The notes beneath the pieces were generated by a model that did not search any database, was not told the DNA's origin, and was given only the letters and a program-made list of their open reading frames with translations. This document shows, one piece after another, positions 5,914 to 63,008 of a stretch of 64,000 bases of DNA. Numbering within the stretch: position 1 is the first letter of the stretch; each line of letters begins with the position of its first letter. Source of the DNA: a virus (taxonomy: Duplodnaviria; Heunggongvirae; Uroviricota; Caudoviricetes); IMG/VR virus record IMGVR_UViG_3300037466_000352; one strand, given 5' to 3'. Position numbers and translations under genes: made by a program.

Positions 5914-6056
5914 GTTGTTGACTTTGAGTTACGGGACACCGGGTGTTGTTGTACATAGTTGTTTCATATGTCTGCGCTGCGCGCATCTCGCTTCGCGAGA
6001 ACAACTTGTTCGTGGATTAGTAAATAACCATGAACCCCGAAAACCATTATACCAAG

Positions 6057-6084
6057 CTCCCAAAGTTGTGTCAAGCTAAATATT
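6057..6084 (+). promoter_or_regulatory. CTCCCAAAGTTGT box followed by AGCTAAATATT (putative late promoter of the 6114 gene)
   Basis: AGCTAAATATT is identical to the 11-mer upstream of the endolysin gene (52573). It lies about 31 nt upstream of the ATG. Confidence 0.5.
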
Positions 6085-6113
6085 GACACTAACACACTCA
6101 AGGATTCCCAACA

Positions 6114-10923: not shown

Positions 10924-11277
10924 ATGATCTACTTGCCTCGCTATTCACCGAAGACGATGCAGTTAAGAAGATCAGGGCTATTCTGCCAGAAAAAATGCCG
11001 TCTCCACGTCAGATACATCGTCCCCACTATGGAATGGCGCATGTATTCTGACGTGGATGGCGCAAAAGAAGATTTCCGTCGATACATCAAGACATCGATG
11101 GCAACCTCTATGGGTCATTTGATTCTCGATGAAAAGCCAGACGCCTTCACGGAAAGTTTTGATTTCGATGTCGGCCAAAGATTTGATGGCGAGGCAATCG
11201 TGTTCAGCCCCAAAGAGTGGCGCGAGTTTCAAAACAAGCTGGCCGAAATAATCACTAACACAAGATATAAGTTCTGA
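10924..11277 (+). CDS. Hypothetical protein
   Basis: 117 aa ORF. Confidence 0.5.
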   Translation: MIYLPRYSPKTMQLRRSGLFCQKKCRLHVRYIVPTMEWRMYSDVDGAKEDFRRYIKTSMATSMGHLILDEKPDAFTESFDFDVGQRFDGEAIVFSPKEWREFQNKLAEIITNTRYKF

Positions 11278-15132: not shown

Positions 15133-16826
15133 GCCAGAACATCTATGAACAACTAAGCGAAGAACGCAAGCAACTTCAAACAGAAGGTCTTGTTCCAGAA
15201 TGGTACACGACCGCCGGTTGGCAGATGTTCAAAGACAAGTACATGTACGACACCACGCATGTACGCGGACAATTCGAACGCATCGCCAACACGGCTGCGT
15301 CACATCTTCCGACACACATGGTTAGTGAAGGCCGTGAGTGGTTCTTCAAACTGTTGTGGAATGGTTGGTTGTCACCATCGACACCAGTCCTTGCCAACAC
15401 TGGCACGAATCGAGGCATGTCCGTTTCGTGTTCGGGTGGAAAGATCGGAGACAGCGTGTACGACTTCTACAAGCACAAGCTTGAAGTTGCGATGTTGACG
15501 AAGAACGGTTTTGGCACGTCGGGCTACCTTGGTGGCATCCGCCCGCGTGGTTCGAAGATCAGCACGGGCGGAAAAGCGTCTGGTGTCCTCGATGTCTTCA
15601 CTGGCATCATTGACGACATGCGCAAGATCGCACAAGGTACGGCACGTCGCGGCGCATACGCGGGCTACCTTGAAGCCGATCACGGCGACTTTGATGAAGT
15701 GTGCGACTTCATCTATAACAACCCAGACGATGCGAATATCGGCTGGGTCATCACGGACGAATTCGTTGCACGTCTGGAAGATGGTGACGTAGATACGCAC
15801 CGTCGCTTCCGCAAGATGCTGAAGCTGAAGATGGTGCATGGCAAGGGATACTTCTTCTTCGTGGACAAGGCCAATCGCCATCGTCCCGAGATGTACAAGC
15901 ACTACAACCTGTTCATCAACAACAGCAACTTGTGTAGCGAAATCATGCTGTTCAATGATGAAGACCACACGTTCACATGCGTGTTGTCGTCGATGAACGT
16001 GGCGAAGTTTGACGAGTGGAAAGGTACGGACGCGGTGTATTGGGCGACGATCTTCCTCGATTGCATCGCAGAGGACTTCATCAAGAAGGCCCGTAACGTT
16101 CCCGGCCTCGAAGCTGCTGTTCGCTTCACCGAGAAAGGTCGTGCGCTTGGTCTAGGTCAGTGTGGCTTCCACACGTACCTGCAACAGAACATGATTGCGT
16201 ACGAGTCATTCGAAGCGCACATGAAGAACCTCGAAATTGCGAAGCACATCTGGGACGAAAGTCTGCGTGCTTCGCAATTCATGGCAGTCGAACTTGGCGA
16301 ACCGGAATGGTGTAAGGGATACGGCGTTCGCAACACACACCGCATTGCAATCGCGCCTACGAAGTCTACGGCGAACCTGATGGGCGGTGTGAGTGAAGGT
16401 ATCAACCCGGACCCGGCGTTCGTTTATACGGCCTCTGGTGCAGCCGGTGAGATGGATCGTATCAACCCGATCCTTCTGAATCTGATGAAGGAACGTGGTG
16501 TCTACACCAAGAAGGTCGTTGCAGACATCTCAGACAAACAGGGTTCAGTGCAACACGTCACGTGGTTGAGTGAAGAAGAGAAGGCCGTGTTCAAGACGGC
16601 ATTCGAAATCAACATGAAGGCACACGTGCGGATGTGTTCTACCCGTGGCCGATACGTTGACCAATGGCAAAGCGTGAACATGTTCTTTGCAGCCGAAGAA
16701 GACGAAGAGTGGATTGCAGAAGTCCATCAAGACATCTTCCTTGACGAGAACATGTTGGCGTCCTACTACATCTACACCCAAGCAGGCGTTCAAGCTGCGA
16801 AAGGTGAATGCGAAGCGTGTCAGTAA
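15129..16826 (+). CDS. nrdA: Ribonucleotide reductase class I alpha subunit NrdA (short form without ATP cone)
   Basis: 565 aa. Active-site NSNLCSEI, radical-site and C-terminal CEACQ motifs. Confidence 0.9.
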   Translation: MSQNIYEQLSEERKQLQTEGLVPEWYTTAGWQMFKDKYMYDTTHVRGQFERIANTAASHLPTHMVSEGREWFFKLLWNGWLSPSTPVLANTGTNRGMSVSCSGGKIGDSVYDFYKHKLEVAMLTKNGFGTSGYLGGIRPRGSKISTGGKASGVLDVFTGIIDDMRKIAQGTARRGAYAGYLEADHGDFDEVCDFIYNNPDDANIGWVITDEFVARLEDGDVDTHRRFRKMLKLKMVHGKGYFFFVDKANRHRPEMYKHYNLFINNSNLCSEIMLFNDEDHTFTCVLSSMNVAKFDEWKGTDAVYWATIFLDCIAEDFIKKARNVPGLEAAVRFTEKGRALGLGQCGFHTYLQQNMIAYESFEAHMKNLEIAKHIWDESLRASQFMAVELGEPEWCKGYGVRNTHRIAIAPTKSTANLMGGVSEGINPDPAFVYTASGAAGEMDRINPILLNLMKERGVYTKKVVADISDKQGSVQHVTWLSEEEKAVFKTAFEINMKAHVRMCSTRGRYVDQWQSVNMFFAAEEDEEWIAEVHQDIFLDENMLASYYIYTQAGVQAAKGECEACQ

Positions 16827-19882: not shown

Positions 19883-19935
19883 AGAATCCCTCTCACGTCG
19901 TGCTGTGGCGACGGAACCCCACTAGAGAGGGAGTA
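19883..19935 (+). promoter_or_regulatory. Structured 5' leader with nested inverted repeats (CCCTCTC...GAGAGGG)
   Basis: 7-8-bp outer arms with an inner CGTCG/CGACG repeat, just upstream of the RBS ggagt of the 19940 gene. Confidence 0.4.
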
Positions 19936-23802: not shown

Positions 23803-24375
23803 ATGTCAACACAATTCCTCGCAGCCGATTTGCATCTCGGCCACAAGGGTGTCACAACGTTCCTCGCGCCGAATGGCGTAGACAAGCTTCGTCCGTGGGA
23901 TGATCCCGAAGTCATGGATGAAGCATTGATCGAGAACTGGAATAGCGTCGTGCGCCCGACCGACAAGGTGTATGTCCTCGGCGATGTAGTCCTGAACAAG
24001 AAGCATCTTCACAAGGTTGGACGCCTTAACGGTAAGAAGCATCTTATCAAGGGCAACCACGACATCTGCAAGCTGAAAGAATACGAACCGTACTTCTACG
24101 AAGTGTCGGCATGCCGTGCGTTGAAGGATATGATCTTGACGCACATCCCCGTTCACCCGGCCAACATCGGGCGATTCGGTGTGAATGTCCACGGCCATCT
24201 TCACGCACACAAGGTTCGTCTCCCGAACGGCGAAATCGATCCTCGATACCTGTGCGTTTCGATGGAACAGATTGCCTATCATCCGATCACGCTCGAAGAA
24301 GTACGCGAGCAATGCGACCGTCGTCGTCAAGCATTCCCCGAGATGTTCGGTGTGAATGAATGGCATGACGCATAA
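23803..24375 (+). CDS. Calcineurin-like metallophosphoesterase (Ser/Thr phosphatase family)
   Basis: DLHLGH, GDVV, GNHD and GHLH motifs. Confidence 0.75.
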   Translation: MSTQFLAADLHLGHKGVTTFLAPNGVDKLRPWDDPEVMDEALIENWNSVVRPTDKVYVLGDVVLNKKHLHKVGRLNGKKHLIKGNHDICKLKEYEPYFYEVSACRALKDMILTHIPVHPANIGRFGVNVHGHLHAHKVRLPNGEIDPRYLCVSMEQIAYHPITLEEVREQCDRRRQAFPEMFGVNEWHDA

Positions 24376-24409
24376 ATAGGGAATACATTCATTCCCGCAC
24401 ACGAAATAC

Positions 24410-25126
24410 ATGCGACTTCACATTCCAGAAATCCTTGATCTGGTGTCAAAAGCACAACGACACGAAGACAAGGTGCGCTTGCTGCGCGAACACCAATCCC
24501 TTCCGCTTGAACAGGTTCTTCAGTACAACTTCCACCCGGACATAGAAATGAATCTACCCGAGGGAGAAGCGCCGTACAAGAAGGACACGGGCATTCCTCT
24601 TGGCAAGTCGGAAACGAACCTCTACCGCGAAGGCCGTCGTCTCTACGTATTCCTAAAGGGCCAAGCACCGAACCTGAAGCCGTTCAAACGCGAACAATTG
24701 TTCATCGAACTGCTTGAGGGCATCCACTGGTCCGAGGCAGATATTCTTGTCGCAGTTAAGGACAAGCGGCTAACCGATCTGTATCCCGGCGTGACGTACG
24801 AAGCGGCCCGTGATGCGTTTGATCGACTGCTTCCGGCAGAACCGCCAAAGCCTATCGTCAAGGCCGTCAAGCTTGCGATTCCTGATCTGGAAGCATCGCT
24901 CGCTCGCGCTGGCATTGCCGAAAAGGAACAAGGTGAGCGCCCTTTGGCCCGACCGGCTTCTTCTACGAAGACGACAGTGGATTCAGCTTCGGAACAACCG
25001 AAAGAGAAGAAGCCGATGTCAGAAGCACGACGTGCCGGTCTACTGAAGGCGCAAGCCGCACGACGCGCAAGCGCAGCCGCCAAGAAAGCAGCGAAGGAAG
25101 CCGAACAAGCTTCACAAGCCGAGTGA
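24410..25126 (+). CDS. Hypothetical protein with a basic Ala/Lys-rich C-terminus
   Basis: 238 aa. ATAAATA motif about 31 nt upstream. Confidence 0.55.
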   Translation: MRLHIPEILDLVSKAQRHEDKVRLLREHQSLPLEQVLQYNFHPDIEMNLPEGEAPYKKDTGIPLGKSETNLYREGRRLYVFLKGQAPNLKPFKREQLFIELLEGIHWSEADILVAVKDKRLTDLYPGVTYEAARDAFDRLLPAEPPKPIVKAVKLAIPDLEASLARAGIAEKEQGERPLARPASSTKTTVDSASEQPKEKKPMSEARRAGLLKAQAARRASAAAKKAAKEAEQASQAE

Positions 25127-26968: not shown

Positions 26969-27696
26969 CGATCCTATCCCTCAAAGAGTTCAAGACCGGC
27001 CTCGAATACCACGACACGTTGAACCCGGCGCTTTGGAACGGCGACGAACTGAAGCCCGAAGTCTATGCGAAGTTGATGAACGTCGCGAACGACTTCATCG
27101 CTTTCTGTGGCATCGATCCGACCAAGGTGTCAGACATCGTAATGACAGGTAGTAGTGCGAACTACAACTACAGCCCGCAGTCCGACATCGACCTACATGT
27201 GATCGCGGTGTATGAACCCGATCACATGAACGAAGCGGGTATCAGTGTGCAGAATGCGTTCAATGCGTTCAAGACGCTGTACAACGAGTCGAGGCATATC
27301 TCGATCTATGGTTTCCCGTTGGAACTGTACGTGCAACCGACGAGCGAACACTTCACGTCCAACGCGGGCGTGTATTCACTAGAGAAAGAGTCATGGGTTC
27401 AGAGGCCAGTTAAGCAGCACGTCGATCTTGATGATCGAGAGATTGAACTGAAGGCCCAGGCAGTCATACACGAAATCAAACAGATCGTGCATGGCAAGAT
27501 GGCTGGCGTACTCGCAAGGCCAAGGATCGATGCTGTGAAAGCAAAGATTCGGCAATTGCGAGCGGCAGGATTGGAAGCCGGTGGTGAGTTCGGAATCGAG
27601 AACCTTGCGTTCAAGGCAATCCGAAATTCCGGCTATCTGGACAAGCTATCGAAATATGCGAGCGCAGTAAAGGATTCTACGCTGTCGCTTTCATGA
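26965..27696 (+). CDS. Pol-beta-superfamily nucleotidyltransferase-fold protein
   Basis: 243 aa. TGSSANYNYSPQSDIDLHVI (GS-x10-SDID) motif. Confidence 0.6.
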   Translation: MTILSLKEFKTGLEYHDTLNPALWNGDELKPEVYAKLMNVANDFIAFCGIDPTKVSDIVMTGSSANYNYSPQSDIDLHVIAVYEPDHMNEAGISVQNAFNAFKTLYNESRHISIYGFPLELYVQPTSEHFTSNAGVYSLEKESWVQRPVKQHVDLDDREIELKAQAVIHEIKQIVHGKMAGVLARPRIDAVKAKIRQLRAAGLEAGGEFGIENLAFKAIRNSGYLDKLSKYASAVKDSTLSLS

Positions 27697-28189
27697 GTTC
27701 ACTACGTTTTCCTTCGTAGTGAACAGGAACGTCATGGTGGTTCAACACAACTGCCATGCCTCTATTGACGTATCCGCTGTACCCATGATCGACCACGGCG
27801 CGTTCGAATGCGTTGCCGTGGTCTTCTCCGTTGTAGACGTGCTTCGCAGCCGTCTCACGAACTTCTTTGGCATGTTCCTGTGAAGCAGTATCCGGGTTGT
27901 ACATGTTGTGCAGCTTCGCGCTGTACGTGTGTTGCCCAAGTCCCGATTCGTGGACCTTCGATACCTTTTCGCCTTCGTTGGCGTGGTAGAAGTAGACACG
28001 ACTCTTGATGCGTGCGTCCTTCGTCTCCGACAGGCGTTTCGCTTCAGCACCCTTGATTCCCGTCCCATAAATCCGACCGTCGAGACTGGTCAACCCTTCC
28101 TTGTGCGAATAGTGCAGGCCGTGGATCGTCTCGCCCTTGACCGGCGCTGCGACCTCGCGCTCGGTGATGAACTGTTTGAATGATTGCAT
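27677..28189 (-). CDS. Hypothetical protein on the minus strand (putative late gene)
   Basis: 170 aa. Convergent with the NTase gene, overlapping it by about 20 nt. On the minus strand CTAAATAAT lies about 28 nt upstream of its ATG. Confidence 0.55.
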   Translation of the reverse strand: MQSFKQFITEREVAAPVKGETIHGLHYSHKEGLTSLDGRIYGTGIKGAEAKRLSETKDARIKSRVYFYHANEGEKVSKVHESGLGQHTYSAKLHNMYNPDTASQEHAKEVRETAAKHVYNGEDHGNAFERAVVDHGYSGYVNRGMAVVLNHHDVPVHYEGKRSELMKATA

Positions 28190-28227
28190 TGACTGTTCCC
28201 AATGTTGATGGTATTATTTAGACTCAT
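28189..28227. promoter_or_regulatory. Divergent promoter region: + strand TTGACT-N17-TATTAT, and minus-strand CTAAATAAT late-type motif on the same AT tract
   Basis: TTGACTGTTCCCAATGTTGATGGTATTATTTAGAC. Its reverse complement contains CTAAATAATA. Confidence 0.5.
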
Positions 28228-28248
28228 CAACGGTTACGGGAGTGTTCT

Positions 28249-28776: not shown

Positions 28777-29291
28777 ACTCAGTTGTTTGTATGCCGCCAC
28801 TGCGCCGATGGAAGAAGGCTGGTGTAGTTGAACGTTCGGTGTTCCTGGCGGGGACTATCGAGATGGGGCAGTCGTGGGACTGGCAATCAGAGATGATCGA
28901 GACGATCAAGGATCGAGCGTCAGTCATCTACAACCCTCGGCGAGCGGAATGGGACGCCACGTGGGAACAGTCGATGATGTCGGTGCCGTTCAATAACCAA
29001 GTGAATTGGGAATTGGACTTCATCGAGTACGCTGACCGGGTGTTGATGTACCTTGACCCCAATTCCAAGTCACCCATTTCTTTGCTGGAATTGGGGTTTC
29101 TTGCTGGCGCTGCACCTGATAAGCTATGGGTGTGCTGTCCCGATGGCTTCTGGCGAAAGGGCAACGTGGAAGTCGTTTGTAATCGCTACGACATCCCGTT
29201 GTATGAATCATTCAAGGTCTTCAAGGAAGCGGCCCGCTGCGACCTGGAACGAGCCTACGACATCTACAAGACCAAAAAGGTGACAGAATGA
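28773..29291 (+). CDS. Nucleoside 2-deoxyribosyltransferase-like protein
   Basis: Trimmed to ATG 28773. VFLAGTIEMG...LELGFLAG motifs. Confidence 0.65.
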   Translation: MNSVVCMPPLRRWKKAGVVERSVFLAGTIEMGQSWDWQSEMIETIKDRASVIYNPRRAEWDATWEQSMMSVPFNNQVNWELDFIEYADRVLMYLDPNSKSPISLLELGFLAGAAPDKLWVCCPDGFWRKGNVEVVCNRYDIPLYESFKVFKEAARCDLERAYDIYKTKKVTE

Positions 29292-29973: not shown

Positions 29974-30002
29974 TTGACTGAATTTCCATGATTGGGTATG
30001 AT
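29974..30002 (+). promoter_or_regulatory. Promoter TTGACT-N17-TATGAT
   Basis: TTGACTGAATTTCCATGATTGGGTATGAT. Confidence 0.45.
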
Positions 30003-30032
30003 TCGTCATGTCAACAACACCGGGAGTCAATC

Positions 30033-30419
30033 ATGGGTCTGACAGCTTCGATCTACGCGAACAAGGAACCTGGATACGAGAATTGCAGCAACAACGGCAT
30101 TTCGTCATTCTTCAATCAGGTGTGCATCATGAACGCGGAAGGTCCGTCTTCGCCGCGTTCAGGGTGTCCTGCCGTAATCATCCAGTCTCATGTTCCTGGC
30201 ATCGTACGAGCGGTCCCGGCTGAACTGAAGGATGGTGAATGGGTCGAGTTCAAGTTCGAACACTGCGTTGGACCGATGTCTGGCGGTGCTTTCATCCACA
30301 CATCGGACAGTCGTTTCGGAGAATTGATCGAGAAGTTGACTGGCGCTCGCTTCTATGGCGCTGTCGCACTCCATGACCGATACGAGTCCACCGAGGACTA
30401 CGAGCGTCTTTCGCGATAA
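30033..30419 (+). CDS. Hypothetical protein
   Basis: Trimmed to ATG 30033 with RBS CACCGGGAGT. Confidence 0.5.
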   Translation: MGLTASIYANKEPGYENCSNNGISSFFNQVCIMNAEGPSSPRSGCPAVIIQSHVPGIVRAVPAELKDGEWVEFKFEHCVGPMSGGAFIHTSDSRFGELIEKLTGARFYGAVALHDRYESTEDYERLSR

Positions 30420-30424
30420 ATCAG

Positions 30425-30473
30425 TTGACAAGTAACCAACGTTGGGATAGTATAACACCTGTCCCAACGTTGG
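30425..30473 (+). promoter_or_regulatory. Promoter TTGACA-N17-TAGTAT flanked by two CCCAACGTTGGG palindromes
   Basis: CCAACGTTGGGA at 30435 and CCCAACGTTGGG at 30461 flank the -10. The same palindrome occurs twice at 3820-3863. Confidence 0.55.
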
Positions 30474-32529: not shown

Positions 32530-32808
32530 ATGGGTTATTTCGAACGGTTCGGAACCGACATCACGGACTTCTGGCCGGATGATGACGAAACAACGCTGTA
32601 CTTATCATCCGGCCAACTAACGATGGCTGACCTGATCCAACACGCCAAGGAACACTTTGGCGACGATGTAAAGATCGAAGACATCGAAGTATCGGCAGAG
32701 AAGATTCACACGCATTGCATCTATTATGATCTGTACGATGCCAGCGACTATACCGACTTCGTTGTTCTAACACACAAGAAACAAAATCCCATCGTTGGGA
32801 ATGCTTGA
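32530..32808 (+). CDS. Hypothetical protein
   Basis: 92 aa ORF. Confidence 0.5.
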   Translation: MGYFERFGTDITDFWPDDDETTLYLSSGQLTMADLIQHAKEHFGDDVKIEDIEVSAEKIHTHCIYYDLYDASDYTDFVVLTHKKQNPIVGNA

Positions 32809-32859
32809 CAGAACTCCCGGTTGCGAGTATGATTCAGTTCATACCAACGCACCGGGAGT
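32805..32859 (+). promoter_or_regulatory. Promoter TTGACA-N17-TATGAT whose spacer and leader form an inverted repeat sequestering the SD (AACTCCCGGTTGCG / CGCACCGGGAGTT)
   Basis: The 5' arm lies in the spacer (32812-32825). The 3' arm (32846-32859) contains the SD GGGAG of the 32866 gene. The predicted TSS falls between the arms. Confidence 0.5.
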
Positions 32860-32865
32860 TTTCAC

Positions 32866-33270
32866 ATGAACGCAAACATTCGCAAGATCGTAGATGTCCG
32901 TGTCGAGTCCGACCTGTACGTTGCTGGTCGCGATCCCGAAGAGGGCTACGTTATTCACGGCGAATCTTTCAAGGTCGTGGCAGAGTTCGAAGGCGGCGAA
33001 GCCTATGCACACGAACATCACTTCCGCAACAAATCCTTCGTCGATGTGTGGGCTGACGACCTGAACGAGATGGTTCGCATGTGGGAAGATTCCACTGACG
33101 AATGCGTGGCCCGCGCAGCACGACTCTGTGATCGTGTCAAGGCCCACATCGAGAAAGGTGGTAATCTTGACATGGCACATTGGCACTTTCATCGGACGAT
33201 TTATGGTTCAGCCGCATACCTCGAAGAAGTTGCCTCGATGACACCGGCCCAGCGTGCCGGAGAAGAATAA
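32866..33270 (+). CDS. Hypothetical protein
   Basis: 134 aa ORF. Confidence 0.55.
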   Translation: MNANIRKIVDVRVESDLYVAGRDPEEGYVIHGESFKVVAEFEGGEAYAHEHHFRNKSFVDVWADDLNEMVRMWEDSTDECVARAARLCDRVKAHIEKGGNLDMAHWHFHRTIYGSAAYLEEVASMTPAQRAGEE

Positions 33271-35617: not shown

Positions 35618-35666
35618 TTGACACAAATTCCCAGACTTGATATAATGTGCGAATTCAAGTCTGGGA
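35618..35666 (+). promoter_or_regulatory. Conserved promoter TTGACA-N17-TATAAT with an 11-bp inverted repeat (CCCAGACTTGA / TCAAGTCTGGG) flanking the -10 and sequestering the SD
   Basis: TTGACACAAATTCCCAGACTTGATATAATGTGCGAATTCAAGTCTGGGAG. The 3' arm overlaps the SD GGGAG of the 35674 gene. Confidence 0.6.
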
Positions 35667-35673
35667 GTCAACG

Positions 35674-35841
35674 ATGAAGAAGAGCAAGAAAAAGAAGAAC
35701 TTCAATAATCACAAAAGCAACACAATTGTGATCGAGTTCGATTCTCCGAAGCCACGCATTGGTGTGATCTTCACCAAGGTCGTGTCTAACAAGAACCTGA
35801 AGAAGCACAAGATCAAGCACAAACACAAGGTTGTAGATTGA
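35674..35841 (+). CDS. Small Lys-rich basic protein (55 aa)
   Basis: ATG 35674 with RBS gggag. The track used the upstream GTG. Confidence 0.5.
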   Translation: MKKSKKKKNFNNHKSNTIVIEFDSPKPRIGVIFTKVVSNKNLKKHKIKHKHKVVD

Positions 35842-36477: not shown

Positions 36478-36941
36478 TGGCAAAGAAAAGCAACATCGAA
36501 AATCTGATTGCATCATTTCAAGAACAGCAAACGAAGTTCCGTGAAATGATGCAAAAGGAATTCAAGAAGACCTTCTCGGAGTTCTTCAAAGAAGTCCCCG
36601 AATGCACGGCAGTGATTTGGACACAGTATTCGCCGTATTTCAATGACGGTGAAGAATGTGTATTCCGTGTTTATTCTTCTACATTCACTAACTGTCCGGT
36701 CGATCAACTCGAATACATCGGTTGCGGCGAGTATGTTGGTGAAGAAGAGAACATCTGGACATATGGTGACGACAGCTATGGCGACGGACCACAACACAAC
36801 ATTCGTCCTGCAATGGATGCACTGGACCGGTTGATTCATTGCCGCGAAATGAGCGGCATCCTTCAAGCTATGTTCGGAAACCACGTCGAAGTCACTGCGA
36901 CGGCAGAAGGCTTTGACATCGACGATTACGATCACGATTAA
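36477..36941 (+). CDS. Hypothetical acidic protein
   Basis: 154 aa ORF. Confidence 0.5.
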   Translation: MAKKSNIENLIASFQEQQTKFREMMQKEFKKTFSEFFKEVPECTAVIWTQYSPYFNDGEECVFRVYSSTFTNCPVDQLEYIGCGEYVGEEENIWTYGDDSYGDGPQHNIRPAMDALDRLIHCREMSGILQAMFGNHVEVTATAEGFDIDDYDHD

Positions 36942-39785: not shown

Positions 39786-39840
39786 ACCCAAGATTGGGTT
39801 GACGTAGCAAGAACCGACAGGTATGATAGTTGCCTGTCGG
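39785..39840 (+). promoter_or_regulatory. Hairpin AACCCAAGATTGGGTT plus promoter TTGACG-N17-TATGAT with inverted repeat CCGACAGG/CCTGTCGG around the -10
   Basis: TTGACG 39799-39804. The -10 TATGAT (39822-39827) sits in the loop of the 8-bp inverted repeat. Confidence 0.5.
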
Positions 39841-39887
39841 TCACTAGGACCGAAGTTCATGATCCACCATATTCGAGTTTCCGATAC

Positions 39888-41739: not shown

Positions 41740-41792
41740 ATTCCCAAAGTTGTAAAGCAAGTTGTTGACGTAAATCTGACATCGTTGTATAA
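41740..41792 (+). promoter_or_regulatory. TTCCCAAAGTTGT box followed by promoter TTGACG-N17-TATAAT
   Basis: GATTCCCAAAGTTGTAAAGC...TTGACGTAAATCTGACATCGTTGTATAAT. Confidence 0.55.
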
Positions 41793-41849
41793 TGTTTCAT
41801 AGTTGTACAGCGTTGTCAGTGCAGTAGCTAACACTTCTCGGAGAACATC

Positions 41850-44296: not shown

Positions 44297-45223
44297 ATGA
44301 TCGTAATCGGAAGCGAAGCAATTAGGAAGCACGGCGTTCTCGTTGAGCGTCGAAAGCTTGACATCGACGTGGTTGGTGAATACGACGAAATTGTTGAATT
44401 TGCCAAGCAGTGCGGAAACATCAAGGCTTGCTATCCCATCGACGATGGCAAGAAGTTGGTCGTCAAGACGGACAGAATCATCGTCGAAGGCGAAATCACT
44501 TGGGAAGATTCGAACGCGGCACAACTGCGTGATCTTATCCTGAATGATCCGTACACAACCTACGAGAAGCGCCCCAACGGATTCGTGATCCCATCACTTA
44601 ATCTGTTGTACATGCTGAAGATGTCGCATCGCTATCTTCGCAACAGTCCGCATTTTCTCAAGACGATGCGCGACATCCAAATGCTTCGGGCACGTGGCGC
44701 GAAGATCGAAAAGTCACACGAAGAGTTCTATCAAGAGCGCATGCGTGTGACTTACGATTACGGTCATCCGAAACTCGATCAGTCGAAGAAGGACTTCTTC
44801 AGCGACGACGGTATCAAGTACGTGTACGATCACGACTCGATTCACGAAGCGATGAAACATCTTGAAAAGCCCGCGTACAACTACTACAAGCCCGACGAGA
44901 ACGAAGTGTTCTGTTCGAAGGACCTGTTCTTCGCTGCGCCCGAGATGGTTCGCCTTCTCGGTGGTCTTGAAGAATCCTACGTGTTGGCGCTGGAACGGTC
45001 GCAAATTCCATTCATCGGTCGGTGGACGCCGCGTAGGTCCTTCGAATTTGCACTGATGAAGGTCTGCACGTCGATCACGTCGGGCTGGTTCCGCGAGTAC
45101 TGCTGGGAAAACTACGACAAGATTCTTGACCTCTATGACGATGGCTACGTTGACCGATTCTGGCGCGCAGTCGAAGCCGGTGAAGTCAAGCATTTCGACG
45201 TTCAACAACGAGTTTATGGCTAA
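44297..45223 (+). CDS. Pol-beta-superfamily nucleotidyltransferase-fold protein (308 aa)
   Basis: N-terminal VIGSEAIRKHGVLVERRKLDIDVV (GS-x12-DID). Confidence 0.55.
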   Translation: MIVIGSEAIRKHGVLVERRKLDIDVVGEYDEIVEFAKQCGNIKACYPIDDGKKLVVKTDRIIVEGEITWEDSNAAQLRDLILNDPYTTYEKRPNGFVIPSLNLLYMLKMSHRYLRNSPHFLKTMRDIQMLRARGAKIEKSHEEFYQERMRVTYDYGHPKLDQSKKDFFSDDGIKYVYDHDSIHEAMKHLEKPAYNYYKPDENEVFCSKDLFFAAPEMVRLLGGLEESYVLALERSQIPFIGRWTPRRSFEFALMKVCTSITSGWFREYCWENYDKILDLYDDGYVDRFWRAVEAGEVKHFDVQQRVYG

Positions 45224-47180: not shown

Positions 47181-47210
47181 AGGCCGGTCAAAAAGATCGG
47201 CCTTTTTTTA
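47181..47210 (+). terminator. Rho-independent terminator
   Basis: GGCCGGTC-AAAAA-GATCGGCC followed by a T7 run. Confidence 0.8.
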
Positions 47211-47218
47211 TTTTGCGC

Positions 47219-47271
47219 TTGACAAACATTCCCAGACATGTATAATCCATTCCGTCAACAACGCATCTGGG
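47219..47271 (+). promoter_or_regulatory. Conserved promoter TTGACA-N16-TATAAT with an inverted repeat (CCCAGACATG / CATCTGGG) flanking the -10 and covering the SD
   Basis: TTGACAAACATTCCCAGACATGTATAAT. The 3' arm overlaps the SD GGGAG of the 47282 gene. Confidence 0.6.
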
Positions 47272-47281
47272 AGAGATTCAC

Positions 47282-47497
47282 ATGACGACCAACCTTCTTG
47301 ACACGGCCATCGAAGCAGTACGCGAAGTTCTTGATTGTGACCGCCGTGGCGCACTGGAACACTTGTCGAACCAAATTGACCGCAAGGGCGCATACACCGT
47401 CGCCAAGCTACATGAAGTTCTCGTCAACAACTCGGCAGAGGAATTCATGATCGAGTTCATGACGGCCTACAACAACGAAGTCGGTCACAAGTACTGA
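47282..47497 (+). CDS. Hypothetical protein
   Basis: 71 aa ORF. Confidence 0.55.
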   Translation: MTTNLLDTAIEAVREVLDCDRRGALEHLSNQIDRKGAYTVAKLHEVLVNNSAEEFMIEFMTAYNNEVGHKY

Positions 47498-48679: not shown

Positions 48680-48708
48680 TTGACAAACATTCCCAACTCT
48701 GGGATAAT
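48680..48708 (+). promoter_or_regulatory. Conserved promoter TTGACA-N17-GATAAT with an ATTCCCA box
   Basis: CTTGACAAACATTCCCAACTCTGGGATAAT. Confidence 0.65.
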
Positions 48709-48739
48709 AGTCACACGTTCAACGCACCGGGAGTCCACT

Positions 48740-49258
48740 ATGAGCCAACGTTTCCACCTGATCGACTCGAACAAGGCATACGACCAACTGCTGGCCGAAA
48801 TCGGACGCCGTAAGGCCCGTCTCATGGTTCTGAAGTTGGTCCTCGAATCCCTGAAGGGAATGGAAGGCAAACCTCTCACGTGGCACGTTGCGAAGGCTCT
48901 GTCGAAGAAGCATCCGCACCAGAAGTTCGAATTCGACAAAACGTATTCGTGGTACAGCCTCACCATCACTGGCGAAGGTATGTCTGGTCTGTCTCTGAAC
49001 CTCGGCTACAAGGGTTCGGTGCAAGGTGTGACGTACCAGACCATCGTGGACAACAATCAAGCGTATCTTCTCGACGAGGAACGCATCCCGCGCATGCAAA
49101 GCGAATTGAAGAACATCGAAGAACGCGTGAATCGCTACAACGCGGCCCTGATCGAATTGAAACGGGCACGCGAAGAACTCGGCGAAGGAAGCTACGCATT
49201 CACCGAAGACACGTCGATCAGCCTCGAAGATGCGAACGGACGGTGGTACAGCGAATGA
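48740..49258 (+). CDS. Hypothetical coiled-coil protein
   Basis: Trimmed to ATG 48740 (MSQRFHL...) with RBS CACCGGGAGT. Confidence 0.55.
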   Translation: MSQRFHLIDSNKAYDQLLAEIGRRKARLMVLKLVLESLKGMEGKPLTWHVAKALSKKHPHQKFEFDKTYSWYSLTITGEGMSGLSLNLGYKGSVQGVTYQTIVDNNQAYLLDEERIPRMQSELKNIEERVNRYNAALIELKRAREELGEGSYAFTEDTSISLEDANGRWYSE

Positions 49259-49476
49259 ACCCGACAACAATCCAGTACGTACGCTTTCGAAACGGCGAGT
49301 GGCAATACCTGTTTGAGTCGAATTTCAAACAGGGTGTCACTCTTGTTCCGGTAGTTGGGACCGTCGTCGCCATCCCCTCGATGACTAATGACTTCGTAGT
49401 GACGCGCGTGCGTTTCGACATCTTACACGGTAACGTGGAAATCGAAGTCAGCGAACTCTATGGGACGGCAGCATGA
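49255..49476 (+). CDS. Hypothetical protein
   Basis: Trimmed to ATG 49255 (ATGA overlap), 73 aa. Confidence 0.45.
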   Translation: MNPTTIQYVRFRNGEWQYLFESNFKQGVTLVPVVGTVVAIPSMTNDFVVTRVRFDILHGNVEIEVSELYGTAA

Positions 49477-49667
49477 GAATTTCCAAGATAATTTACGTCG
49501 GCGATCCCGGCGTTATCCGAGAAACCTACTACGATCATCGCTGGGATGTGATTCCGCGAGTTGGGGAATTCGTGAAGTTTCCCCACAAAGGGATGATGCT
49601 GGTTGAAGCCGTGTCGTACAACGTTTCGACGGAGACAGTCACGGTCAATCTTTCTCTCAACATATGA
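49473..49667 (+). CDS. Hypothetical protein
   Basis: 64 aa. ATGA overlap. Confidence 0.45.
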   Translation: MRISKIIYVGDPGVIRETYYDHRWDVIPRVGEFVKFPHKGMMLVEAVSYNVSTETVTVNLSLNI

Positions 49668-49906
49668 AGAAACTGGTATTTCTGCTGCTCTTCGTGTCGC
49701 TCGCCGCATGTCAACGAGAGACGCAACAAGAGCACTTGGCCCGTCAACAAGACGTTAAAAACAAACTAAAAGCACAAGAGAAGTGGATGCACGCGTGCGA
49801 CAACAATGGAGGTGTCGCTGACATCGCCTACAGTCGTTACGACAGCACGCTTGTCTGTGCCAACCATCTCGAAGCGTCACTCTCGACATTTCTGAATAAC
49901 CAATAA
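49664..49906 (+). CDS. Small lipoprotein
   Basis: Signal peptide plus lipobox LAAC-Q. 80 aa. Confidence 0.5.
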   Translation: MKKLVFLLLFVSLAACQRETQQEHLARQQDVKNKLKAQEKWMHACDNNGGVADIAYSRYDSTLVCANHLEASLSTFLNNQ

Positions 49907-49913
49907 CATTCTG

Positions 49914-51290
49914 ATGTCCATCCTTGCAATTCTGAATCGGGTCGCACAAACGACCAAGAAAACAGAGAAAGAAGCGATCCTCAAGGAAAACGCAGGCAAC
50001 GAAACCCTGCAACGCGTCTTCTATCTCGCATACCAACCGACCATCAACTTCTTCATCAAGAAGATTCCGCCCGTCATGCCGAAGTCTGGCGCTGGGTCGA
50101 TCTTTGATGAAGAGGAATTCACGCTCGACCACGCCCTTCAAAATCTCGTCGAAGTCATCTCGAAGCGCAAGCTGACCGGCCATGCGGCGCAGCAGTACGT
50201 CGGCAACCTTCTCGGACAATTGTCGGCAGACGACGCCGAAGTCCTGCAACGCGTCATCGGTCGCGATCTTCGCGTCGATTGTGGCGCAAGCACGGCAAAC
50301 AAGGTCTGGAAGGGGCTGATTCTCGATGTCCCATACATGCGGTGCAGTCTACCCAAGGAAGTCAACCTGAAGGCGTTTCCGTGGGCGCAAGGGCTATTCT
50401 CGCAACTGAAGTCGGACGGTTCGTTCACGAACGTCAACTACTTCGCCGATGGCGGTGTCGAATTCATGACCCGCAACGGCAACGTCTACCCGAATGACGA
50501 GTTCGGTGAAGTGATCGAAGCCGTTCAGCGAGTCCCGGCACAAGCACACCAGTTCCACGGCGAATTACTGGTCCTCGGCCCGGATGGAAACATTCTGGAA
50601 CGTGCTGAAGGCAACGGCATCCTGAACAAGTTGGCGAAGGGCGGCAAGCTTCCTGAAGGCCATAAGATCAAGTTCGTGGCATGGGACATGATTCCTCTCG
50701 ATCAAGCCGTTCCGAAGGGCAAATACGAAGTTCCCTACCGGGTCCGTCTCGCGACCCTCGAAAACCTCGGCCTGACTGGCGCAATCGAAGTAGTTGAAAC
50801 CCGTGTCGTTCATTCGATCCGCGAAGCCTACGAGCACTACCAAGAGATGTTGGCGCTTGGCCTCGAAGGCACGATCCTGAAGCACCCTGACGCGATCTGG
50901 GAAGATACGACCTCGAAGAAACAGGTCAAATTCAAGCTGGACGTTGACCTCGATCTGGAATGTGTCGGCTTCACTGAAGGCAATGGTCGTCGTGCAGAGA
51001 CGTTCGGTGCAATGAAGTTGCGTTCCTCTGATGGCTTGCTGACGGTGAACTGTTCGGGCTTCAAGAAAGACGACCTCGCACGCATCAACGAGAACCGCGA
51101 GGACTACATCGGACGCATCATGACGATCCGTTCGAACGCAATGACTAAGGTCCGCAAGGACGGTACGCGTAGCTTGTTCTTGCCGCGATTCATCGAAGAA
51201 CGCAACGACAAGATGGACGCTGACTCACTCGAAAAAGTCATGCTTCAGTTCGAAAGCGCCGTGACCGATCTGGAAGCACTGTTGGCATGA
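49914..51290 (+). CDS. ATP-dependent DNA ligase
   Basis: 458 aa. Adenylation motif LKSDGS (KxDG). OB-domain region follows. Confidence 0.8.
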   Translation: MSILAILNRVAQTTKKTEKEAILKENAGNETLQRVFYLAYQPTINFFIKKIPPVMPKSGAGSIFDEEEFTLDHALQNLVEVISKRKLTGHAAQQYVGNLLGQLSADDAEVLQRVIGRDLRVDCGASTANKVWKGLILDVPYMRCSLPKEVNLKAFPWAQGLFSQLKSDGSFTNVNYFADGGVEFMTRNGNVYPNDEFGEVIEAVQRVPAQAHQFHGELLVLGPDGNILERAEGNGILNKLAKGGKLPEGHKIKFVAWDMIPLDQAVPKGKYEVPYRVRLATLENLGLTGAIEVVETRVVHSIREAYEHYQEMLALGLEGTILKHPDAIWEDTTSKKQVKFKLDVDLDLECVGFTEGNGRRAETFGAMKLRSSDGLLTVNCSGFKKDDLARINENREDYIGRIMTIRSNAMTKVRKDGTRSLFLPRFIEERNDKMDADSLEKVMLQFESAVTDLEALLA

Positions 51291-51412
51291 TGAACTGGCC
51301 TCTCGTCATCGGTGTAGGAACCATCGTCTTCGGGTTTCTCTTCATCTGCCGGATTGATAACTGGCAGCTTCGATCCCTTGAACGGAATGGCGGCGTAATC
51401 GACCGCTGGTAA
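51287..51412 (+). CDS. Small membrane peptide (41 aa), not in the track
   Basis: ATGA overlap with the ligase stop. One TM. Confidence 0.3.
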   Translation: MMNWPLVIGVGTIVFGFLFICRIDNWQLRSLERNGGVIDRW

Positions 51413-51420
51413 CTATGACA

Positions 51421-51457
51421 GGAAGTGCTAAATAATTTTGTGATGTTTAGCACTTCC
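51421..51457 (+). promoter_or_regulatory. 12-bp perfect-stem hairpin (GGAAGTGCTAAA...TTTAGCACTTCC) containing a GCTAAATAAT late-type motif
   Basis: No T-run follows. The motif lies about 40 nt upstream of the FmdB ATG. Confidence 0.45.
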
Positions 51458-51470
51458 ACCATTCAACCCA

Positions 51471-51731
51471 ATGCCTCTCTACGATTACCAGTGCAAAGAA
51501 TGTGGTCACACATTCGAACGCACACTCCGAATTGCAGACATGAAGCTTCCAGAAAGCGAAACATGTCCTTCCTGTAACAAATCAGACACCGTTCAAAAAA
51601 CTCTTGCCGGTGCGCCGCCGATTGGCGATCCGGTTCGTTTGGGCGTCCGCAAACTTCCAGGTGATTTCAAAGAAGTCCTACAAAAAATACATGAAAGGAA
51701 CTACAGAAGTAACCTAAACCAGAAGTGGTAA
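51471..51731 (+). CDS. FmdB-family zinc-ribbon protein
   Basis: N-terminal MPLYDYQCKECGHTFE...CPSC. Confidence 0.7.
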   Translation: MPLYDYQCKECGHTFERTLRIADMKLPESETCPSCNKSDTVQKTLAGAPPIGDPVRLGVRKLPGDFKEVLQKIHERNYRSNLNQKW

Positions 51732-51773
51732 AGGTTTCGATCATCCAATCTCCCTAAGAAGGAGCAAAGTAGC

Positions 51774-52553
51774 ATGGCAAAGAAGAACAGGACGCAACAA
51801 CGTCCTTCCGCCGTGAATGCAGCACAAGCACAACAAAGTGTTCAACGTCAGTACACCGATAACCCGTCGAACCGCTTGAGGCTGAGAATTGATGATCTGC
51901 ATACCTTCGATCCGTTGACCCAAAATCAACGTGTGTTCTTCGAAGAGTACCATGATGAACAGAACATGGCCTTCGTGCTGCATGGTGTAGCCGGGTCAGG
52001 AAAATCGTTCATCGCCTTGTACAAGGCACTCGAAACCGTTATGGACCCAAGCCAACCGTTTGACGGTGTGGTGATTGTCCGTAGCGCCGTTGCTGGCCGT
52101 GACATCGGTCACTTACCCGGAACGGAAGATGAAAAACTGGCTGTGTACGAGCAACCGTACATCGGAATCTGTACCGACCTATTCGGTCGTCGCGATGCTT
52201 ACCAACGACTGAAGGAACAAGGTGTCATCGACTTTATGTCGTCGTCCTTCATCCGGGGCACTACGCTCGACAACAAGATCGTAATCGTTGACGAGATGCA
52301 GAACTACAGTTGGGAAGAACTCTACACAATCGCCACACGTGTTGGTCATCGCACTCGCATCATCTTTGCTGGCGACTTGCGTCAAACCGATCTTCGTAAG
52401 CGCGGTGATCCTTCTGGATTGGTGAAGTTCCTCGACATCATGGGCACACTGAACAATATCGCAATGGTCGAATTTGGTGTTTCCGACATCGTTCGATCTG
52501 CCTTCGTGAAGGCCGTCATCGTTGCAACAATGGCGTACGACGACGCGCATTAA
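51774..52553 (+). CDS. phoH: PhoH-like ATPase
   Basis: Walker A HGVAGSGKSF. The rest is PhoH-like. Confidence 0.8.
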   Translation: MAKKNRTQQRPSAVNAAQAQQSVQRQYTDNPSNRLRLRIDDLHTFDPLTQNQRVFFEEYHDEQNMAFVLHGVAGSGKSFIALYKALETVMDPSQPFDGVVIVRSAVAGRDIGHLPGTEDEKLAVYEQPYIGICTDLFGRRDAYQRLKEQGVIDFMSSSFIRGTTLDNKIVIVDEMQNYSWEELYTIATRVGHRTRIIFAGDLRQTDLRKRGDPSGLVKFLDIMGTLNNIAMVEFGVSDIVRSAFVKAVIVATMAYDDAH

Positions 52554-52560
52554 AACCTCA

Positions 52561-52607
52561 AGGGTTCCTTGCAGCTAAATATTCATTATTGGCTATGAGG
52601 AACCCAA
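52561..52607 (+). promoter_or_regulatory. SD-sequestering hairpin (AGGGTTCCT / AGGAACCC) with AGCTAAATATT late-type promoter in its loop, upstream of the endolysin
   Basis: The 3' arm includes the endolysin SD GAGGA. The loop carries CTAAATAT (52575-52582). The arrangement matches T4 gene e early/late translational control. Confidence 0.6.
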
Positions 52608-53120
52608 ATGTCCTACTCCCTTTCACAAGCTGGCGCACAACTGATCGGTCAGTTCGAAGGTCTTCGGTTGACCGCGTACTATGACTCGGTAGGCGTCCTC
52701 ACCATTGGCTACGGCACGACGAATGCGGTTCTTCCGCAGTCGATGAAGTTCGGCCCCGGCACGACAATCACACAAGCCCAAGCAGTAGAGTACCTTATGT
52801 ACGGCGTGAACAATGTGTTCGCACCGAAGGTAAATGCTTTGGTCAAAGTGCCTCTCACGCAAAACGAATTCGATTCGCTGGTGTCCTTCGCGTATAACGT
52901 TGGTTCTGGCAATCTCGCATCCTCAACTTTGCTTCGTCTGTTGAACGCGGGCCAGTACGGCGCTGCGCAGAAGCAATTCCTTGTCTGGAACAAGGCCGGT
53001 GGTGTCGCGATGCGTGGATTGACGAACCGTCGCCTCGGAGAAGCCGCGAACTTCGGTCCCCTAACACGTCAGCAACTAATCGACCAGTGCTTGAACGGCG
53101 TCGATCCCGCAAACCCATAA
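52608..53120 (+). CDS. Endolysin, GH24 (T4 lysozyme-like) muramidase
   Basis: 170 aa. EGLRLTAYYDSVGVLTIGYGTT (catalytic E, D, T region). Confidence 0.85.
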   Translation: MSYSLSQAGAQLIGQFEGLRLTAYYDSVGVLTIGYGTTNAVLPQSMKFGPGTTITQAQAVEYLMYGVNNVFAPKVNALVKVPLTQNEFDSLVSFAYNVGSGNLASSTLLRLLNAGQYGAAQKQFLVWNKAGGVAMRGLTNRRLGEAANFGPLTRQQLIDQCLNGVDPANP

Positions 53121-54729: not shown

Positions 54730-55233
54730 TTGATTACGATGAAATCACTACTTGCAGCAATCTTGATGGCCCTGTCGATTCACATCGCAGTGCCGAAAGA
54801 CAACCCGCCACAGCTTCAACCAACGGTTCAGCACGACATCAACTGTCTGGCAGAGAACGTCTACTATGAAGCCCGTGGCGAACCCGAGGCTGGTCAAGTC
54901 GCGGTCGCTGATGTGACCCTGAACCGCACACAGGCCAATGGTTTTCCTAAGACGGTATGCGGCGTGGTTCACGAACAACGTGACCACAAGTGCCAATTCT
55001 CGTGGGTATGCTGGCGCAAGCGTCCGCCTATCGATAAGAATTCCCAACAGTGGGTCAAGGCGAGCAATATTGCCATCACTGTCTTGCTTTTCCGTTCAGG
55101 ATCGGATACAATGTTAAAACAGTCGGCGCTGTTCTATCACGCCAACTACGTTCACCCCGTCTGGGCGAAGAAAATGAAGTTCATCAAGAAGATTGGTGGA
55201 CACCTGTTCTACACGAAGCAAACGAACATCTGA
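54730..55233 (+). CDS. SleB-like cell-wall hydrolase with a signal peptide
   Basis: 167 aa. Signal peptide, then SleB-domain motifs (VADVTLNR, PKTVCGVV, QFSW). Confidence 0.7.
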   Translation: MITMKSLLAAILMALSIHIAVPKDNPPQLQPTVQHDINCLAENVYYEARGEPEAGQVAVADVTLNRTQANGFPKTVCGVVHEQRDHKCQFSWVCWRKRPPIDKNSQQWVKASNIAITVLLFRSGSDTMLKQSALFYHANYVHPVWAKKMKFIKKIGGHLFYTKQTNI

Positions 55234-58022: not shown

Positions 58023-58615
58023 CACCATACCAAGTCGGCAAAGCATACATAGCCCTGAAGGCGCACTTCACCAAGGACTCGTATGACGTAATCAAGTCGA
58101 ATGGACGGATCAACTATCCGCGTGCCAAGTTCGAAGAACGGAAGGACCGCCATCGTTGCGAGAAGATGGCTATCAACATGCGCGACGAAGAGATTGTCAA
58201 GTTCTTCGTCGCCAACTTCTCACGCAAGCCAGACTATAGCGGACTGTTTGATGACCAGTCCGAGACACGCTACAGGGAATGGTGCGGCTACATCGAATCG
58301 CTGTCGTACAACTATGGGAATGAAGTCAAGTCATTGCTACTTGATGCAAAAGATTCCCAGATGTGTTATAATGACGTTTTCGTTGGTGCTGAAGGTCAAC
58401 ATCCTCCCGTTCTCAATGCGTACATGGGGAAGCAAATCTCCATCGAGACGTTCATCATTCTGGACCGCCTAAATAGGTTTACGGACAACATAACAGTCGA
58501 TGTGGTGTCAGAAGACACGCTTCGCATCGCTCGCAAGTACAGTCCCTTCCTGAAGGTCGATCTGGAAACCTATGACAACATCACAAGAACCGTCAGAGAA
58601 CAAGTGTTCGAATGA
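58019..58615 (+). CDS. Helicase loader (T4 gp59 homologue)
   Basis: Trimmed to ATG 58019. Matches T4 gp59 segments (YDVIK..., ISIETFIILDRLNRF vs ISFETFILLDSFLNI). Confidence 0.7.
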   Translation: MTPYQVGKAYIALKAHFTKDSYDVIKSNGRINYPRAKFEERKDRHRCEKMAINMRDEEIVKFFVANFSRKPDYSGLFDDQSETRYREWCGYIESLSYNYGNEVKSLLLDAKDSQMCYNDVFVGAEGQHPPVLNAYMGKQISIETFIILDRLNRFTDNITVDVVSEDTLRIARKYSPFLKVDLETYDNITRTVREQVFE

Positions 58616-62944: not shown

Positions 62945-62964
62945 GAAATAGTCCTCAGTGATGA

Positions 62965-63008
62965 TCGACTATTTAGTTGTTGACACGCATTCCCAACCTT
63001 GGTAATAT
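62965..63008. promoter_or_regulatory. Divergent region: minus-strand CTAAATAG late-type motif (62969-62976) and + strand conserved promoter TTGACA-N17-TAATAT (62980-63008)
   Basis: GTTGACACGCATTCCCAACCTTGGTAATAT, followed by CATCGACA and RBS aggagg. Confidence 0.6.

Follow-up and report, generated by a model that had tools for sequence, protein, structure and literature searches.

A late promoter inside a putative Shine-Dalgarno-masking hairpin upstream of the endolysin gene of an uncultured T4-superfamily phage, and hairpins around its early promoters

In bacteriophage T4, the genes e, soc, 49 and I-TevI are preceded by a hairpin that sequesters the Shine-Dalgarno sequence (SD) in transcripts arriving from upstream and that has a late promoter inside it (PMC3014915). 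The same arrangement of a promoter within an SD hairpin is also found at T4 genes 39, 25, 26, I-TevI/II/III and segB and at mobE of phage Aeh1 (PMC2988022). A second kind of element, the PeSL cassette, is known from the T4-type phages RB49/phi1, PST/T4 and nt-1/KVP40; PeSLs have sigma-70 promoters with a stem-loop that lies after the -35 and before the -10 or over the -10 and with the SD and ATG at the 3' end, and they have been read as promoter-terminator composites and as recombination sites (PMC2839356, PMC4122927). These reports describe the cloning of the PeSL211/210 stem-loop for a lacZ terminator assay and call the stem-loops effective terminators (PMC2839356, PMC4122927). Here we analysed a hairpin upstream of an endolysin gene in a stretch of 64,000 nucleotides of viral DNA (IMG/VR record IMGVR_UViG_3300037466_000352; the whole stretch is called the window). 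A sequence-only reading of the window had proposed four inverted repeats of the T4 e type, one at the endolysin gene and three at other genes, and all four are present as quoted and at the coordinates that it gave. The sequences, fold energies, conservation with covariation and positional enrichment of motifs reported below are direct observations.

The hairpin upstream of the endolysin gene

The endolysin gene (52608-53120, plus strand) belongs to PF00959 Phage_lysozyme, the family named for phage lysozymes such as that of T4 gene e. In the spacer between phoH and this gene, the outer 5' arm of the hairpin, AGGGTTCCT (52561-52569, plus strand, anti-SD), lies upstream of the late promoter CTAAATATT (-12 to -6 element, 52575-52583, plus strand), whose predicted start is at ~52587, and the outer 3' arm, AGGAACCC (52598-52605, plus strand), overlaps the SD GAGGA (52597-52601) ahead of the ATG at 52608. 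The outer stem consists of 8 Watson-Crick pairs, and the predicted fold has an extra inner helix in which GCUAA (52574-52578, part of the promoter motif) pairs with UUGGC (52589-52593). The SD had been proposed to lie in the 3' arm, 3 nt before the ATG; the overlap with GAGGA stands but the spacing does not, as 6 nt separate GAGGA from the ATG and the arm itself stops 2 nt short of that codon.

The description of the motif in the loop as late-type is borne out. CTAAATATT matches the late-promoter consensus published for the T4-like Aeromonas phage Aeh1, CTAAATA at -12 to -6 (PMC1524935), and CTAAATA is enriched ahead of start codons: six of its 10 copies in the window sit 32-43 nt before a start codon, where we estimate that chance would place ~0.2. 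CTAAATA also stands at the start of the two minus-strand gene blocks, and one of these blocks codes for baseplate proteins. On sequence grounds CTAAATA(T) is thus the late-promoter motif of the window phage, and because of this start-codon spacing, the position at the head of the minus-strand blocks and the match to Aeh1, we take the motif in the endolysin loop to be a late promoter.

We compared the predicted structure of read-through RNA with that of RNA started at the internal promoter, using 200 dinucleotide shuffles per site as controls. The endolysin read-through RNA folded at -21.7 kcal/mol (z-score -3.68), and none of the 200 shuffles folded as well, while RNA from the predicted late start reached -3.3 kcal/mol. 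The probability that the ribosome-binding site is paired was 0.71 in the read-through RNA versus 0.33 in the late-start RNA; in T4 gene e, which served as a positive control, the corresponding values were 0.82 for read-through and 0.37-0.46 for the late starts.

The hairpin is conserved in five genomes (the window and its relatives L075, L002, L070 and L073); endolysin homologues of <50% identity (L004-L064) were set aside as uninformative, being from unrelated phages whose endolysin gene overlaps the one upstream. Across the five, CTAAATATT is invariant and the two-tier hairpin is retained (17-20 pairs, -22 to -29 kcal/mol, spanning about -55 to -2); the loop and flanks diverge. The outer stem GGGTTCC/GGAACCC is replaced in L073 by TTCTCGC/GCGAGAA, with complementarity and coverage of the SD preserved, and the extension at the base of the stem consists of U-A/A-U pairs in L002 versus A-U/A-U pairs in L070. 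RNAalifold found 4 of 15 pairs changed on both sides. Moreover, owing to G-U pairs, four of the five genomes have a more stable fold on the plus strand than on the minus strand.

The genes upstream of the endolysin gene lie on the same strand and have sigma-70 promoters upstream, and the stretch from the early promoter at 48680 to 52561 revealed no strong terminator on the plus strand, so transcripts from upstream on this strand should read through into the hairpin. In the mechanism that we propose, early and middle transcripts from these sigma-70 promoters would cross phoH into the endolysin leader, which would fold into the two-tier hairpin of 17-20 pairs (-22 to -29 kcal/mol) and bury the SD, and early synthesis of lysozyme would be prevented. 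In late infection, RNA polymerase carrying a gp55-type late sigma would start ~6 nt after CTAAATA, inside the loop, and the resulting transcripts, lacking the 5' arm, would be unstructured and would be translated as in T4 gene e. We infer the transcription starts, the read-through and the effect on translation, and the T4 e-type reading of the endolysin hairpin, with a late promoter and a masked SD, is well supported in silico.

Hairpins around the early promoters

A scan of the plus strand of the window gave 26 promoters of the sigma-70 type, several of them with a perfect TTGACA-17-TATAAT, and the consensus of 40 distinct promoters of the lineage is TTGACAa...ttcCca.....gGTA..ATtC. By eye, many of these cassettes continue into a CATCGACAAC-like leader and a GGGAG SD. 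The repeated early cassette runs from TTGACA through a spacer with TTCCCA and an extended -10 to a leader and a GGGAG SD, and in a subset of the cassettes the promoter spacer is complementary to the cassette's own leader. The three further sites that had been described as built in the same way as the endolysin site, at 35630, 32812 and 47231, all enclose such consensus sigma-70 (early) promoters and not late ones. In other respects the three fared differently: the hairpin at 32812 is strong and conserved, that at 35630 folds beyond chance, and that at 47231 is at chance level. The same division was seen in the comparison of read-through with internal starts, in which the endolysin, 35630 and 32812 RNAs lost their fold when started internally but 47231 was no better than its shuffles to begin with.

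At 35630, the cassette (35618-35676, plus strand) has TTGACA at 35618-35623 and TATAAT at 35641-35646 with perfect 17-nt spacing, and its ATG is at 35674. The arms TCCCAGACTTGA (35629-35640) and TCAAGTCTGGGA (35655-35666) form 12 bp flanking TATAAT, and the SD GGGAG (35663-35667) lies in the 3' arm with all but its last base. Read-through RNA folds at -26.2 kcal/mol (z -4.81, with 0 of 200 shuffles as good), and RNA from the cassette's own promoter at -1.8 kcal/mol.

The cassette at 32812 (32805-32868, plus strand; TTGACA 32805-32810, TATGAT 32828-32833, ATG 32866) has the 5' arm AACTCCCGGTTGCG (32812-32825) in its promoter spacer, and this pairs with CGCACCGGGAGTT (32848-32860) over 13 bp, leaving one T bulged and flanking TATGAT. 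The -10 region itself is paired in an inner helix, GUAUGA/UCAUAC (32827-32832 with 32839-32844). The 3' arm CGCACCGGGAGTT contains the SD GGGAG and is followed by TTTTCAC and the ATG. Here the read-through RNA folds at -35.1 kcal/mol (z -5.87, again with no shuffle as good) and the own-promoter RNA at -3.3 kcal/mol. All 19 of the 19 predicted pairs are kept in four genomes, although the downstream protein is just 56-59% identical among them, and an A that is bulged in L066 becomes an A-U pair in L067 through an inserted U. UUUUCAC directly follows the stem in all four genomes; since a stem followed by UUUU is found there, attenuation of transcription is also possible at this site. In our model, the complementarity at 32812 and 35630 would make translation depend on the cassette's own promoter, and the 32812 hairpin may additionally attenuate read-through.

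At the third site (47181-47284, plus strand), an intrinsic terminator (47181-47203 and a T-run) precedes the early-promoter cassette (TTGACA 47219, TATAAT 47241-47246, ATG 47282). The pairing of TTCCCAGA (47229-47236) with TCTGGGAG (47266-47273) comprises 8 pairs, with AUG/CAU in addition, around TATAAT, and amounts to a weak, generic TTCCCAGA/UCUGGGAG match that L069 lacks. This hairpin is probably non-functional.

Promoters enclosed by hairpins are not restricted to these sites. The -10 boxes of 5 of the 26 sigma-70 promoters (P = 6.5e-4) and 4 of the 10 late motifs (P = 1e-4) fall into loops formed by perfect inverted repeats with stems of 8 bp or more, where 2.8% would be expected. Among 46 promoter-gene junctions of the lineage, 20 have a spacer:leader duplex of -14 kcal/mol or lower, compared with 14.6% of chimeric pairings, and 12 of these 20 strong hairpins reach the SD or the AUG. 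At other sites (30436-30473, 39813-39841, 41776-41819, 51421-51457, 24354-24394 and 5878-5913) the 3' arm stops 13-30 nt before the start codon. One of them is a sister late-promoter hairpin (51421-51457, plus strand; 12 bp, GGAAGTGCTAAA/TTTAGCACTTCC, z -4.7) that incorporates CTAAATA and whose 3' arm stops 13 nt short of the ATG of gene 51471, which has no SD; two of its pairs have changed on both sides, as compensatory changes. Another, of 12 bp around the -10 of promoter 30425 (30436-30473, plus strand, z -4.1), has a 3' arm that leaves the SD uncovered and stops 24 nt short of the ATG at 30498; L067 has G-C in place of an A-U pair, and in the window the two arms have changed places. The arms of the 41776 hairpin (site 41850) differ in each genome in a pattern of compensatory conservation. 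In the L065 orthologue of the 39813 hairpin, a stem of 13 bp with the -10 in its loop is followed by the U-tract TTTTCATTT. Furthermore, two more distant T4-like contigs (L072 6033-6080 and L071 14115-14163; z -4.9 and -3.6) share the design: a 10-bp hairpin, CTCCAACTGT/ACAGTTGGAG, has ATAAATA in its loop and, in its 3' arm, the SD GGAG of a DUF4379 zinc-finger gene that lies upstream of a primase-like gene.

Two candidate extensions were rejected. A minus-strand late promoter (62946-62974, CTAAATA from 62976) with a weak, AU-rich 8-bp hairpin, AAATAGTC/GACTATTT, that overlaps the SD of a T4-baseplate-family gene (62944-62246) fits the design by eye as a gp26-like member, but its fold is not significant (z -0.3). 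A generic TTCCCA/UGGGAG masking of the SD in every sigma-70 cassette was likewise dismissed, as native cassettes were no better than the controls and their distribution was bimodal.

Several other arrangements of promoters and repeats were noted. In the cassette at 29986-30036, the 3' arm of a 9-bp repeat, CCATGATTG/CAATCATGG, lies over the ATG of gene 30033, and at 19887-19932 (TCCCTCTC/GAGAGGGA) the 5' arm comes right behind the -10 of promoter 19858, and the SD of gene 19940 is formed by the 3' arm. The element at 3818-3864, a 13-bp stem followed by the T-run TTTTCGTTT, has the -35 of promoter 3848 in its loop and that promoter's spacer as its 3' arm, a terminator overlapping a promoter. 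At 28189-28235, a plus-strand sigma-70 -10 (TATTAT, 28212) and a minus-strand CTAAATA (28221) of divergent promoters share bases and the repeat GTTGATG/CATCAAC. At 5878-6113, a plus-strand CTAAATA (5885, in an 8-bp hairpin) faces a perfect minus-strand TTGACA-17-TATAAT (-35 at 6074) across ~190 nt that hold no convincing open reading frame, and this pair may yield convergent or antisense small transcripts; a second CTAAATA at 6076 lies within a 7-bp hairpin, GTGTCAA/TTGACAC, formed with the minus-strand -35.

The early cassettes also share features outside the hairpins. The spacer of sigma-70 promoters (e.g. 62980, 48299, 47853, 40246 and 28499) carries TTCCCA ~4 nt after the -35, and the same ~26 promoters have a GGTA..AT extended -10 and a TC right after the -10, with CATCGACAAC in many of the leaders. 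TTCCCA, the extended -10 and the TC could be a promoter element or the operator of a phage factor. An inverted subclass (2544, 46175, L069 4016 and L065 18334) has TGGGAAT in the spacer and ATTCCCA after the -10. Strong SDs of the GGGAG type are mostly limited to the first gene behind a promoter cassette, and many genes inside operons have no recognisable SD (e.g. 51471, 46256 and 22160).

Finally, the window is rich in inverted repeats as such, with 68 perfect ones (stem at least 8 bp, loop 8-40 nt) against 23-31 expected, and about ten of those with 10-13 bp are intragenic. Examples of the excess are 11003-11057, 16235-16279, 24954-25015, 27196-27228, 29056-29097, 32572-32615, 36508-36554, 44711-44753 and 58182-58212. 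The relatives show a roughly 2-fold excess of their own. The long intragenic repeats were discarded as candidates for conserved functional structures, as they are absent at the orthologous positions checked, even where the proteins are 84% identical.

Competing explanations of the hairpins

Our best reading, which we consider fairly probable, is that the endolysin hairpin would act as a T4 e-type late gate, that the hairpins at 32812 and 35630 would tie translation to their own early promoter, and that the 47231 hairpin would have no function. Several observations weigh against it. We know of no tested precedent for an early promoter within a masking hairpin. The perfect 12-bp stem at 35630 is confined to the lineage of the window and absent from L065-L067; the orthologues in L065 and L066 have an interrupted 5+4 bp version, TTCCC..CTTG/CAAG..GGGAA, and that in L067 has TTCCC/GGGAA only. 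The 47231 hairpin (-11.9 kcal/mol, z +0.54) is matched or bettered by 137 of the 200 shuffles, and the strong canonical terminator directly upstream of its cassette should remove most of the read-through into it. Over all 18 cassettes of the window, the pairing of the SD with the upstream arm was 0.36 in native, 0.33 in chimeric and 0.28 in shuffled combinations, and masking is thus specific to particular genes. Of the 20 strong promoter hairpins, eight miss the SD and the AUG, including the well-conserved ones at 30436, 41776 and 51421; SD masking therefore cannot be the general explanation or the only role of these hairpins, and a second or different function must exist. The many perfect intragenic repeats that are not conserved mean that some perfect stems may be mutational by-products. 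Moreover, the likeness to T4 e, soc and I-TevI that had been drawn for all four sites holds for the endolysin gene but not for 32812, 35630 and 47231, as these have sigma-70 promoters and the T4 cases documented are all for late genes (PMC2988022).

It is possible, though we would give it the smaller chance of being right than wrong, that the hairpins mainly stop or attenuate upstream transcription, as in a promoter-terminator of the PeSL type, and so insulate each cassette, with the overlap of the SD incidental to short leaders; this would apply mainly to the sigma-70 sites. The PeSL stem-loops of RB49 and phi1 have been called effective terminators (PMC2839356, PMC4122927), T-runs stand behind some of the hairpins in our set (3818-3864, the L065 orthologue of 39813, and 32812), and where leaders are long the 3' arm stays beside the promoter and not at the SD (30436 and 41776). 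However, a U-tract is missing from the hairpins at the endolysin gene, 35630, 51421 and 30436, intrinsic terminators do not typically have loops of 13-29 nt, and the canonical terminator at 47231 is a separate one, 16 nt upstream, indicating that the phage uses ordinary terminators when needed.

For 35630 and 47231 in particular, the pairing may have arisen as a chance or mutational by-product, given that a TTCCCA spacer is naturally complementary to a UGGGAG SD and that quasipalindrome-templated mutation could have perfected the 35630 stem. The z-score of +0.54 at 47231 and the interrupted 5+4 bp version in the relatives of 35630 agree with this, as do the 68 perfect inverted repeats against 23-31 expected, of which the long intragenic ones are absent in relatives, and the SD is masked nearly as well by chimeric as by native combinations of spacer and leader. 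Yet the native duplexes are much stronger than the chimeras over the 46 junctions of the lineage, and a by-product cannot explain the endolysin, 32812, 51421 and 30436 hairpins, which are conserved with compensatory changes. We therefore regard this origin as unlikely.

A role in RNA processing or stability, in which the read-through hairpins would be cut by RNase III or would shield the 3' end of the upstream message and so separate the cistrons, as the RNase III sites of phage T7 do, seems to us more unlikely still. The size range of phage RNase III substrates is known from sites of the T7 R1.1 type, and the helices of 17-21 pairs with internal loops (-22 to -35 kcal/mol) fall within it; processing would also account for the hairpins that do not overlap the SD. 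On the other hand, many stems have just 8-12 bp, no processing motif or enzyme was identified, and the window gave no Rfam match besides a tRNA.

Least probable of all is a DNA-level element (a cruciform, a melting aid or the operator of a dimeric regulator), as the arms differ between promoters and between orthologues with a spacing of 9-33 nt, long loops disfavour cruciforms, and the endolysin, 41776 and 47853 stems, which contain G-U pairs, are 4-9 kcal/mol more stable on the plus strand, even though in both promoter classes the promoter core is enclosed by the repeats, with or without involvement of the SD, most stems are perfect Watson-Crick, the repeat at 28202-28235 encloses a plus-strand -10 and a minus-strand CTAAATA together, and the TTCCCA spacer motif is conserved in ~40 promoters. 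Over all stems, the comparison of plus- with minus-strand folds gave a marginal strand bias (P = 0.05), and a count of G-T versus A-C mismatches, as indicators of RNA versus DNA function, gave zero informative mismatches because the stems are nearly all perfect. A single operator protein was rejected: arm sequences and spacing vary, and since the arms differ among promoters and orthologues a single sequence-specific protein is unlikely.

Our preferred reading, a late gate at the endolysin gene with promoter-dependent translation at 32812 and 35630, could be widened to a genome-wide 'promoter-of-origin gate' in which promoter-straddling hairpins serve both temporal classes, an extension that we hold to be doubtful. 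If it were true, early genes that have a sigma-70 promoter of their own (e.g. 32866 and 35674) would be translated only from its transcripts and would be silent when read through later, mirroring the late-only gating of the endolysin gene, and the hairpins away from the SD would insulate by attenuation or processing.

The phage and its relation to known systems

Judged by its gene content, the window is part of the genome of an uncultured T4-superfamily myovirus. The assignment is based on T4-like core genes, baseplate proteins and the kinship of its gp32 to that of T4-like cyanophages. The replication proteins encoded include a DnaB/gp41-like helicase, a gp61-like primase and a gp59-like helicase loader adjoining a gp32-like single-stranded DNA-binding protein, and further proteins are a ribonucleotide reductase, thymidylate synthase (td), DNA ligase, PhoH and NAMPT. 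The minus strand encodes a T4 baseplate protein (PF12322), a hub-assembly catalyst and a large hub-like protein. The closest homologues of gp32 are in T4-like cyanophages and in Methylophilales phage Melnitz (~45-48% identity). A search for near-identical DNA among cultured phages gave no match, and a protein search with gene 53133 gave distant mycobacteriophage matches only. The relatives in IMG/VR comprise three contigs of ~168 kb and fragments, with protein identities of 40-90%. None of the late-transcription proteins gp55, gp33 and gp45 was identified within the 64-kb window of a genome of roughly 168 kb; the T4-like core genes and the late motif suggest that the phage has them. A second lysis-type gene (endolysin PHROG 938, 54739-55233) lies 1.6 kb 3' of the lysozyme gene. 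Rfam contains no known RNA family matching any hairpin site, and its sole match in the window is a tRNA; a lone tRNA-Trp (CCA) gene lies at 2603-2678, immediately 3' of the sigma-70 promoter 2544.

If our reading of the endolysin hairpin is true, the timing device of T4 lysozyme stands upstream of a lysis gene in a lineage with hardly any sequence in common with T4, which would argue for a general solution against premature lysis in T4-superfamily phages. The ~20 natural promoter-in-hairpin variants, with or without SD contact or a U-tract, could serve to separate masking from attenuation in PeSL-like cassettes. In addition, the late motif CTAAATA and the early-cassette consensus are a gain for the annotation of this uncultured phage group.

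For the three sigma-70 sites, the closest documented elements are the PeSL cassettes. Both show a repeated near-consensus sigma-70 promoter with an overlapping or adjoining stem-loop, an SD and a start codon, and both seem to flank small genes of unassigned function in variable regions; the genes after the window cassettes are small and mostly without family matches, and the gene content behind the orthologue of 46256 varies among relatives. The published PeSL stems, however, are compact (a G-run, a loop, a C-run and similar), whereas the arms in the window straddle the -10, with loops of 11-29 nt and arm sequences specific to each cassette, and in ~60% of the strong cases in the window lineage the SD itself makes up the 3' arm. 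In position, the hairpins at 51421, 24354 and 30436 resemble the one of seg43(25) in Aeromonas phage 25, a very stable hairpin immediately 5' of the ribosome-binding site that does not cover it (PMC2988022), but no internal promoter has been described for the seg43(25) hairpin.

The endolysin hairpin is nearest to the leader of T4 gene e (NC_000866), in which ACCTCTT, two TATAAATA motifs and AGGAGGT precede the ATG. The two have the same geometry and the same in silico loss of structure in the late RNA, and the product of the window gene is in PF00959 Phage_lysozyme. They differ in that the lysozymes share only a 20-residue local match, the window lineage being very distant, and in that the late motif of the window is CTAAATA, as in Aeh1, and not TATAAATA. 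The window hairpin, moreover, holds one promoter where that of T4 holds two, and it is longer, two-tiered and pairs part of the promoter motif. Thus, the endolysin element would be a new example of a known T4 mechanism, and the early-promoter version would be new if shown to gate translation.

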